Assembly: GCA_031701365.1 (NCBI GenBank)
Contig: GCA_031701365.1_4118.1
From: Escherichia coli
GTDB taxonomy: Bacteria; Pseudomonadota; Gammaproteobacteria; Enterobacterales; Enterobacteriaceae
Strand: one strand, 5' to 3'
DNA length: 64,000 nt
Shown here: in pieces, positions 28,066-28,323 of the stretch
Position numbering within the stretch: position 1 is the first letter of the stretch
How the letters are laid out: every line of letters starts with the position of its first letter
The notes under the pieces: generated by a model
The model's database searches: none
Told to the model about the DNA's origin: nothing
What the model saw: only the letters and a program-made list of their open reading frames with translations
Program-made: the position numbers and the translations under genes

Positions 28066-28323
28066 ATGGCTGTAGGATTCGCGAAAGATGGGGCCGAACA
28101 AGACGAGATTAACGCAGTGATTCAGGCCGCCGTTAACCACGCTAGAAAGCAAATTAACGCACAAATAGAATCACTGATACATTGCCTCGACTGCGGCGAT
28201 ATAATCCCTGAGAATCGACGCCAGGCCGTTAAGGGATGTAAGTACTGCATAACTTGCCAGGAGGATCATGATAGTACTTTTAAACGTCCCCCGCGTAATT
28301 GTTGGCATAGATCTATGAGATAA
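28066..28323 (+). CDS. TraR/DksA-family C4 zinc-finger protein
   Basis: 85 aa; CLDCGDIIPENRRQAVKGCKYCITCQ matches C-x2-C-G-x2-IP-x2-RR ... C-x2-C-Q signature. Confidence 0.7.
   Translation: MAVGFAKDGAEQDEINAVIQAAVNHARKQINAQIESLIHCLDCGDIIPENRRQAVKGCKYCITCQEDHDSTFKRPPRNCWHRSMR

Follow-up and report, generated by a model that had tools for sequence, protein, structure and literature searches.

A YbiI-type member of the DksA/TraR zinc-finger superfamily in the putative early region of an Asteriusvirus jumbo coliphage

Introduction

Does a small zinc-finger gene of a virulent jumbo coliphage encode a protein that works through the secondary channel of the host RNA polymerase (RNAP) in the manner of TraR and DksA? 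The question is raised by an 85-codon open reading frame (ORF) located at 28066..28323 on the + strand of a 64,000-nucleotide stretch of DNA (contig GCA_031701365.1_4118.1 of an assembly deposited as Escherichia coli), which we refer to as the window. The window derives from an Asteriusvirus (PBECO4/121Q-like) jumbo coliphage, the 3 kb surrounding the gene being 90-96.5% identical to ELP-22, PBECO4, 121Q, and fEgEco12. An earlier reading of the letters, the original prediction, had described the product as a close match to the TraR/DksA zinc finger and had placed its gene in an early region behind an untranslated leader. The analysis reported here indicates that the protein almost certainly belongs to the DksA/TraR superfamily of C4 zinc-finger proteins and, by sequence comparison, that it is of the YbiI type and not of the TraR type, its nearest relative being E. 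coli YbiI.

The identification itself is not new, because an identical protein already carries a DksA-like label in GenBank. The orthologues in ELP-22 and SHEFM2K, the latter 100% identical to the protein examined here, are named "DksA-like zinc-finger protein", those in 121Q (gp294) and Ecwhy_1 "C-4 type zinc finger protein", and that in WPEC3 "TraR/DksA C4-type zinc finger protein". The naming of Asteriusvirus orthologues is inconsistent, and several records say "hypothetical protein". What is added to this already annotated DksA-like zinc-finger gene is a caveat, namely the YbiI-type sub-classification and the missing DxxDxA motif.

Results

The gene starts with ATG and ends with TAA, the stop codon being included in the coordinates above. 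Its 85-residue product, MAVGFAKDGAEQDEINAVIQAAVNHARKQINAQIESLIHCLDCGDIIPENRRQAVKGCKYCITCQEDHDSTFKRPPRNCWHRSMR, contains the zinc-finger segment CLDCGDIIPENRRQAVKGCKYCITCQ as residues 40-65, and translation agreed exactly with the ORF and segment quoted in the original prediction. The Pfam search proposed there returned PF01258 (zf-dskA_traR) at a significant 42.7 bits, over the curated gathering score of 24.9 (E=5.4e-11), with residues 39-68 aligned on positions 5-34 of the 36-position profile. PHROG 54, "DksA-like zinc-finger protein", was matched with E=1.8e-18 by residues 12-76 on positions 9-72 of 75. Pairwise pN/pS values among the Asteriusvirus orthologues were 0.12-0.29, and this purifying signature together with the profile matches identifies 28066..28323 as a real gene under purifying selection. 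It is the sole ORF of the 64-kb window with a CxxC-x(10-25)-CxxC pattern, and no second zinc-finger paralogue was found there.

Family-level profiles then placed the protein within the superfamily. The best NCBIfam family was NF008243 (PRK11019, the YbiI equivalog), matched over residues 1-72 on positions 1-71 of 88 with E=3.9e-23 and a score of 81.7 bits, below the equivalog cut-off of 96. The TraR-subfamily model TIGR02419 gave 51.3 bits (cut-off 59.7), the TraR equivalog NF010268 gave 30.4 bits (cut-off 108), and the model for DksA proper, NF033459, gave 14.2 bits (cut-off 105). Sequence matches in the Protein Data Bank (PDB) were ordered similarly, with YbiI (2KGO) aligned from residue 1 at E=2.9e-12 and TraR at E=1.7e-5 over residues 18-68 only. 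Of the close match to TraR/DksA claimed originally, superfamily membership therefore stood and closeness to TraR did not, as the nearest relative is YbiI, the score lies below the TraR cut-off, and the DxxDxA motif is absent.

The homologues of the protein fall into layers, with the Asteriusvirus orthologues at 87-100% identity, T4-like phages at 62-74%, and bacterial 88-residue YbiI proteins at 49-62%. The Asteriusvirus orthologues occupy the same slot, between gp293 and a GNAT acetyltransferase gene, and nothing substantive differs among them. T4-like carriers include Citrobacter phage Moon, Yersinia phages MHG19 and fHe-Yen9-01, Escherichia phages JS10 and vB_EcoM_RZ, and Klebsiella phages; the JS10 copy sits in the tk-mobD-nrdC region, and synonymous sites are saturated between the JS10 homologue and the gene in the window. 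An exhaustive phmmer search of 1.84 billion representative sequences, taken to E<=1e-3, gave 547 relatives, for many of which the alignment begins at residue 1; tblastn found relatives in 968 phage records, with lambda-like and Stx-phage homologues matched over residues 28-67.

Conservation was examined in an alignment of 58 homologues made up of the phage clade and bacterial YbiI, 45 of them with phage-type tails and 13 with YbiI tails. Fifteen positions were invariant (M1, A2, G4, R27, C40, C43, I47, R51, R52, G57, C61, C64, Q65, D69, and R77), and K7, D8, G9, A10, Q12, P48, and E49 were conserved in at least 90%. Residues 1-12 form a family-specific N-terminal tip, MAVGFAKDGAEQ (28066..28101, +), which stands where TraR has DxxDxA, and the motif MAxG[FW]AKDGAxQ is common to the phage and bacterial proteins. 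The ATG start is secure because residues 1-12 are near-invariant across the alignment, the bacterial homologues included; a Shine-Dalgarno-like GAGG lies 8 nt 5' of it (28054..28057, +) within a segment that is invariant in six phages. The C4 zinc ribbon spans codons 40-65 (28183..28260, +) and ends in Q65; its putative zinc ligands, the CxxC-x17-CxxC cysteines C40, C43, C61, and C64, were invariant in all homologues aligned, and I47-P48-E49-x-R51-R52 lies between the two pairs.

The protein ends in a basic tail, FKRPPRNCWHRSMR (codons 72-85; 28279..28320, +), that is invariant in the phage clade. Of the 58 homologues, 45 have a tail of the RNCWHRSM[RK] type (one of them reading RNCWHRTMR), 12 have RRGSKDSQLR, and one has RRGSEDSQLR. 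The YbiI tail [YI]NRRGSKDSQLR is absent from the phage clade, which has FKRxPRNCWHRSMR in its place. The two kinds of tail are probably homologous because intermediates exist, namely homologue P0065 with HNRKVWHRSMR and homologue P0060 with YNRKANYHTQLR. The phage protein thus shares with YbiI (2KGO) its N-terminal motif (MAxG[FW]AxDGAxQ), its helix, its IPExRR zinc ribbon, and its length (85 versus 88 residues), and differs from it in the tail, RNCWHRSMR in place of NRRGSKDSQLR.

Residues 59-85 also match phrog_25948, a match explained by the following remnant. In the T4-like Escherichia phage EP02SG (L003:1390-1581), a 63-residue ORF carries the second CxxC and the tail (...VVIYCVGCQSMHDEIFKREPRNCWHRSMR) on an unrelated N-terminus, and is a deletion remnant of the zinc-finger gene.

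An AlphaFold2 (AF2) model built with the family alignment had a long N-helix at codons 8-32 (28087..28161, +), the counterpart of the TraR N-helix, and a short C-helix at codons 62-71 (28249..28278, +), a possible counterpart of the TraR C-helix, with the zinc ribbon between the two helices; residues 1-7 were non-helical with low predicted local confidence (pLDDT), and the tail was also of low confidence. Searched against the PDB with Foldseek, the model matched, in order, YbiI (2KGO), RNAP-bound TraR (6N57_M; also 5W1S), and DksA-RNAP complexes. On 6N57_M it gave a TM-score of 0.67 normalised to TraR and a root-mean-square deviation of 3.3 A over 67 columns. This modelled superposition supports a TraR-type architecture.

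The documented contacts of TraR permit a residue-level comparison. The N-helix of TraR carries a DxxDxA tip that reaches the active site, with S2 lying 4.3 A from Mg2+; its globular domain touches the beta' rim helices through R48 and beta'Si3 through E46, R49, and K50; and its C-helix sits on beta lobe-Si1 (PMC9239242, PMC6970531). RNAP contacts and mutant phenotypes are documented for I44, P45, E46, R48, and R49 (PMC9239242, PMC6970531), and it is this run, I44-P45-E46-x-R48-R49, that aligns with I47-P48-E49-x-R51-R52 of the phage protein. TraR K50 corresponds to Q53, a variable position among the homologues. Alignment by hhalign with a DxxDxA-bearing TraR-like profile had a probability of 99.7% (E=1e-26) and placed residues 18-77 on profile positions 15-74. 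A register shifted by one residue, with D8-G9-A10 on TraR D6-x-A8, was considered and had no support from MAFFT or hhalign; it is at most a possibility.

In its predicted layout the phage protein has the same order of N-helix, C4 globular domain, and putative C-helix as F TraR (6N57, 5W1S), but it is only ~25% identical without gaps (18/73), its N-terminus is 3 residues longer, it has a 12-residue basic tail, and it lacks DxxDxA. DksA (1TJL, 5VSW, 7KHI) belongs to the same superfamily, shares the zinc-ribbon globular domain, and is among the fold matches, but is longer, at 151 residues, and has a coiled coil of two helices, a tip loop with DxxDxA, and residues that bind ppGpp, whereas the phage protein has 85 residues and a single N-helix. 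The phage homologues of TraR already tested (lambda Orf73, P2 Orf82, VHML Orf8, and VP882 Orf61/TraR_VP882) come from temperate phages, have ~61-82 residues, and carry a full or partial DxxDxA. The protein described here comes instead from a virulent jumbo phage with T4-like relatives and belongs to the YbiI-type clade.

We also considered when the gene might be expressed. Eleven perfect TTGACA-N16-18-TATAAT promoters occur on the + strand, that of the gene, against a chance expectation of ~0.08 estimated from base composition, and ten of them lie between 19.7 and 34.3 kb. Their upstream flanks are A+T-rich, as are their discriminators, with 0-3 G+C per 8 bases. The segment homologous to this region in fEgEco12 lies at 9.0-13.4 kb, within an experimentally supported direct terminal repeat of 20,993 bp, and a second copy of the gene is found in the right-end repeat at 365219-365476 (L011:3220-3477). 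Rak2-like jumbo relatives have no RNAP of their own, and PA5oct is sensitive to rifampicin (PMC7318152); in CBB, RpoD-like promoters are concentrated in blocks of small genes that are considered early (PMC5259590). The early placement of the region in the original prediction is plausible in light of the consensus sigma-70 promoter array and the terminal-repeat location in fEgEco12, and from these sequence features early expression of the zinc-finger gene is likewise plausible.

Promoters of the array (19691-34339, +) share a common spacer and -10 context, AGTACTGTATAAT, for example at 26624-26690, 29368-29435, and 33122-33185. In several cases a conserved hairpin, GGGGAGAA-N4-TTCTCCCC, follows the promoter within ~12 nt, where the transcript is predicted to begin. 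The array looks like a repeated promoter-leader cassette preceding many small genes.

Approximately 330 nt separate the previous ORF, which ends at 27734, from the ATG of the zinc-finger gene. The original prediction had assigned the gene an untranslated leader of 290 nt, a description that was not confirmed, since two promoter-like sites and a conserved 48-codon ORF were found there. The first site, P1 (27739..27767, +), reads TTGACA-17-CATAAT with a TG upstream, has 11 of 12 consensus matches, lies ~300 nt 5' of the ATG, and is nearly invariant in six phages. The second, P2 (27855..27882, +), reads TTGATC-16-TATAAT with 10 of 12 matches; its -35 hexamer overlaps a GATC, and its -10 hexamer is conserved in six phages.

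The 48-codon ORF (27920..28066, +; 121Q gp293, phrog_38664) ends in a TAA that overlaps the zinc-finger ATG as TAATG. It starts with GTG here and TTG in 121Q, has the C-terminus IIVALQYYSIFIMRLK, is annotated in 121Q, WPEC3, CMSTMSU, and fEgEco12, and has a PHROG match. Comparison of two haplotypes, which share only 62% identity over the first 90 nt of the ORF, shows an uninterrupted frame and no indels, with 18-20 differences at third codon positions versus 7-11 at first and second positions. Judged from this pattern, the ORF is probably coding, and it is possibly translationally coupled to the zinc-finger gene. We considered whether the small gene upstream is a conserved partner, as in QisA-TraR_VP882; both here and in JS10 its end falls exactly at the zinc-finger ATG. 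The idea was rejected because there is no detectable similarity between the two upstream proteins, the gp293-like protein of 48 residues and MobD.3 of JS10 of 60 residues.

Between P1 and P2, four GATC sites, mostly in the form TGATCA(A), fall within 31 nt (27830-27860). The region has diverged in 121Q, Ecwhy_1, and WPEC3 and still has five GATC sites in the alignment, so the cluster appears to be conserved as a cluster despite the divergence. Across the window GATC is under-represented, with 144 sites found versus ~206 expected. Possibly the cluster serves as a control region, either sensitive to Dam/SeqA or resembling an operator. Six phages are 100% identical over positions 27751-27825, a stretch made up of the latter half of the P1 spacer, the -10 hexamer of P1, and the 58 nt downstream, whereas the next ~180 nt are only ~62% identical. 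This segment holds the hairpins GACG-AGAA-CGTC and CCC-ATA-GGG as well as a GTGCAC palindrome. No copies of the invariant segment 27773-27809 were found elsewhere in the window, and the whole window gave no Rfam match to a known RNA element at gathering thresholds.

Immediately 3' of the zinc-finger gene is the gene for a 118-residue GNAT acetyltransferase (28330-28743; PF00583, E=4e-9), which has its own perfect 12/12 promoter. It adjoins the zinc-finger gene in every examined Asteriusvirus record that annotates it, but not in the T4-like JS10. No intrinsic terminator was found within 27400-28900, and so none lies between the two genes. The zinc-finger gene has a G+C content of 46.5%, versus a window mean of 34.9% and 31.4% in the leader; the higher value is compatible with acquisition from a G+C-richer source.

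Several related records deserve mention. The two terminal-repeat copies of the gene in fEgEco12 are named differently, one "DksA-like zinc-finger protein" and the other, at the right end, "pro-lysogenic factor", a label that we could not trace to any relevant paper. The CMSTMSU orthologue (L007:1043-1310) has several frameshifts and is unannotated; since the record is flagged UNVERIFIED_ORG, a pseudogene and a sequencing error are equally likely there. In a bacterial contig (ERZ25039603 contig_1094, L008:4001-4267) a YbiI-like gene follows a chorismate-binding trpE-like gene and precedes selO, trpG, trpD, and trpC. The reported surroundings of E. coli ybiI are different, being an iron-uptake neighbourhood, and the context in this contig offers no functional clue.

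Discussion

The considerations above make binding of the YbiI-type zinc-finger protein to the RNAP secondary channel plausible, and we tentatively propose, at a little short of even chances, that it acts through that channel in the host. The host sigma-70 RNAP would make the protein early, from the gene's own promoters in the terminal-repeat region. The protein would then dock at the mouth of the secondary channel via I47-P48-E49-x-R51-R52 and insert its N-terminal helix into the channel, thereby altering the kinetics of open complexes at those host promoters where such complexes are unstable, for example the rRNA and ribosomal-protein promoters. Phage consensus promoters with A+T-rich discriminators would be spared, as follows from what is generally known of DksA/TraR-sensitive promoters and from the discriminators observed in the array. 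At the active site the outcome may be weaker than with TraR or qualitatively different, because DxxDxA is replaced by the near-invariant G-[FW]-A-K-D-G-A.

Precedents from the family bear on this proposal in both directions. Each of the five phage TraR homologues that have been tested was able to bind RNAP and to complement a dksA deletion, including two with an incomplete DxxDxA (PMC9239242); these two, P2 Orf82 and Xenorhabdus Gp34, did so with lower activity (PMC9239242). DxxDxA has been described as critical for TraR/DksA function (PMC9239242). For bacterial YbiI, over-expression was stated to rescue the amino-acid auxotrophy of a dksA deletion as "data not shown", by authors who preferred an iron-related role (PMC2613031), and E. 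coli ybiI is sigma-S dependent (PMC4447067), in contrast to the predicted sigma-70 early context of the phage gene. The literature on YbiI, PA4870, and the phage orthologues yielded only this 2009 remark and the sigma-S dependence.

A number of observations weigh against action through the channel in the manner of TraR. Neither DxxDxA nor DxxExA is found at the tip of any of the 58 homologues, and both a gapless register and MAFFT place TraR D3, D6, and A8 on A6, G9, and E11. The hhalign alignment leaves the N-terminal 17 residues unaligned, as it does the C-terminal tail. Some family members that lack DxxDxA and other features do not act like DksA (PMC9239242). The scores fall below the cut-offs of both the YbiI equivalog and the TraR subfamily, and confidence in the AF2 model is moderate, with a mean pLDDT of 73 that drops to ~51 at both ends.

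A more specific form of the channel proposal, which we regard as unlikely, is that bacterial YbiI and its version in Asteriusvirus and several T4-like genera constitute a functionally distinct class of RNAP-channel ligand, with the IPExRR docking surface, a different tip, and a basic tail, used by the virulent phages as an early host-shutoff or anti-stringent factor. The near-invariant tip, G-[FW]-A-K-D-G-A, would sit on an N-terminus that is Gly-flanked, probably not helical, and extended by 3 residues relative to TraR, and the effect would be unlike that of TraR or DksA, for instance plugging of the active site or exclusion of DksA and Gre factors.

The features that set the N-terminus apart could also mean that the protein is simply a blocker or competitor, which would bind the rim as TraR does but not reprogram initiation, acting either by keeping host DksA, GreA, and GreB out, for example to dampen a stringent response set off by infection, or by blocking the active site with its extended N-terminus. 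The residues that correspond to rim and Si3 contacts are kept while the tip is replaced, residues 1-7 are non-helical in the AF2 model, and Rnk provides the precedent of a channel binder that only competes (PMC9239242). Mere occupancy, however, would not require a tip that is near-invariant across phage and bacterial proteins, and the reported rescue of dksA auxotrophy by YbiI points to a DksA-like and not an anti-DksA activity. We consider this explanation improbable.

It is similarly doubtful that the function is unrelated to RNAP, with the zinc ribbon serving as a scaffold, the N-terminal motif and basic tail binding a different partner (nucleic acid, or a host protein connected with stress or iron), and the phage hijacking that pathway. 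TraR has no counterpart of residues 1-12 or of the tail, the two best-conserved segments specific to the family; TraR of VP882 works in complex with a partner protein; and E. coli ybiI is not only sigma-S dependent but situated in an iron-uptake neighbourhood, its product having no assigned function despite a solved structure. Conservation of precisely those residues, IPExRR, with which TraR touches RNAP is nevertheless hard to explain in other terms, and the predicted fold can be superposed on TraR as bound to RNAP. Nothing points to another partner, the gene neighbours differing among Asteriusvirus, T4-like phages, and bacteria.

As a small phage C4 zinc-finger protein encoded just downstream of a cluster of TGATCA palindromes, the product might be a DNA-binding factor like P2 Ogr/Delta that acts on phage promoters, for example via the TGATCA/GATC cluster; this is very improbable, as there was no Ogr/Delta Pfam match, the one Pfam hit besides PF01258 being to an unrelated domain and insignificant (11.9 bits, E=0.21), and the proteins that the fold matches, TraR, DksA, and YbiI, do not bind DNA. 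Least credible of all, and largely refuted by the conservation pattern, is a decaying or functionless passenger ORF from the host or another phage, to which the raised G+C content (46.5% versus 34.9%), the truncated chimeric remnant in a T4-like phage, and the frameshifted CMSTMSU copy might point, but against which stand the low pN/pS (0.12-0.29), the intact 85 residues, the invariant termini in Asteriusvirus and T4-like homologues that are 62-98% identical, and the unverified status of the CMSTMSU record.

The zinc-finger gene is an ordinary and recognisable member of a large and well-known family, and the gain made here is a modest one of sub-classification. The description of TraR as a secondary-channel binder that mimics DksA/ppGpp should not be assumed to transfer to this protein, because it is of the YbiI type, has no DxxDxA, and has invariant termini of its own. 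Should the YbiI-type clade bind RNAP with a different outcome, a function would be assigned to the long-uncharacterised YbiI of E. coli, and a further host-takeover factor, common to jumbo and T4-like coliphages, would be added to those of these phages.

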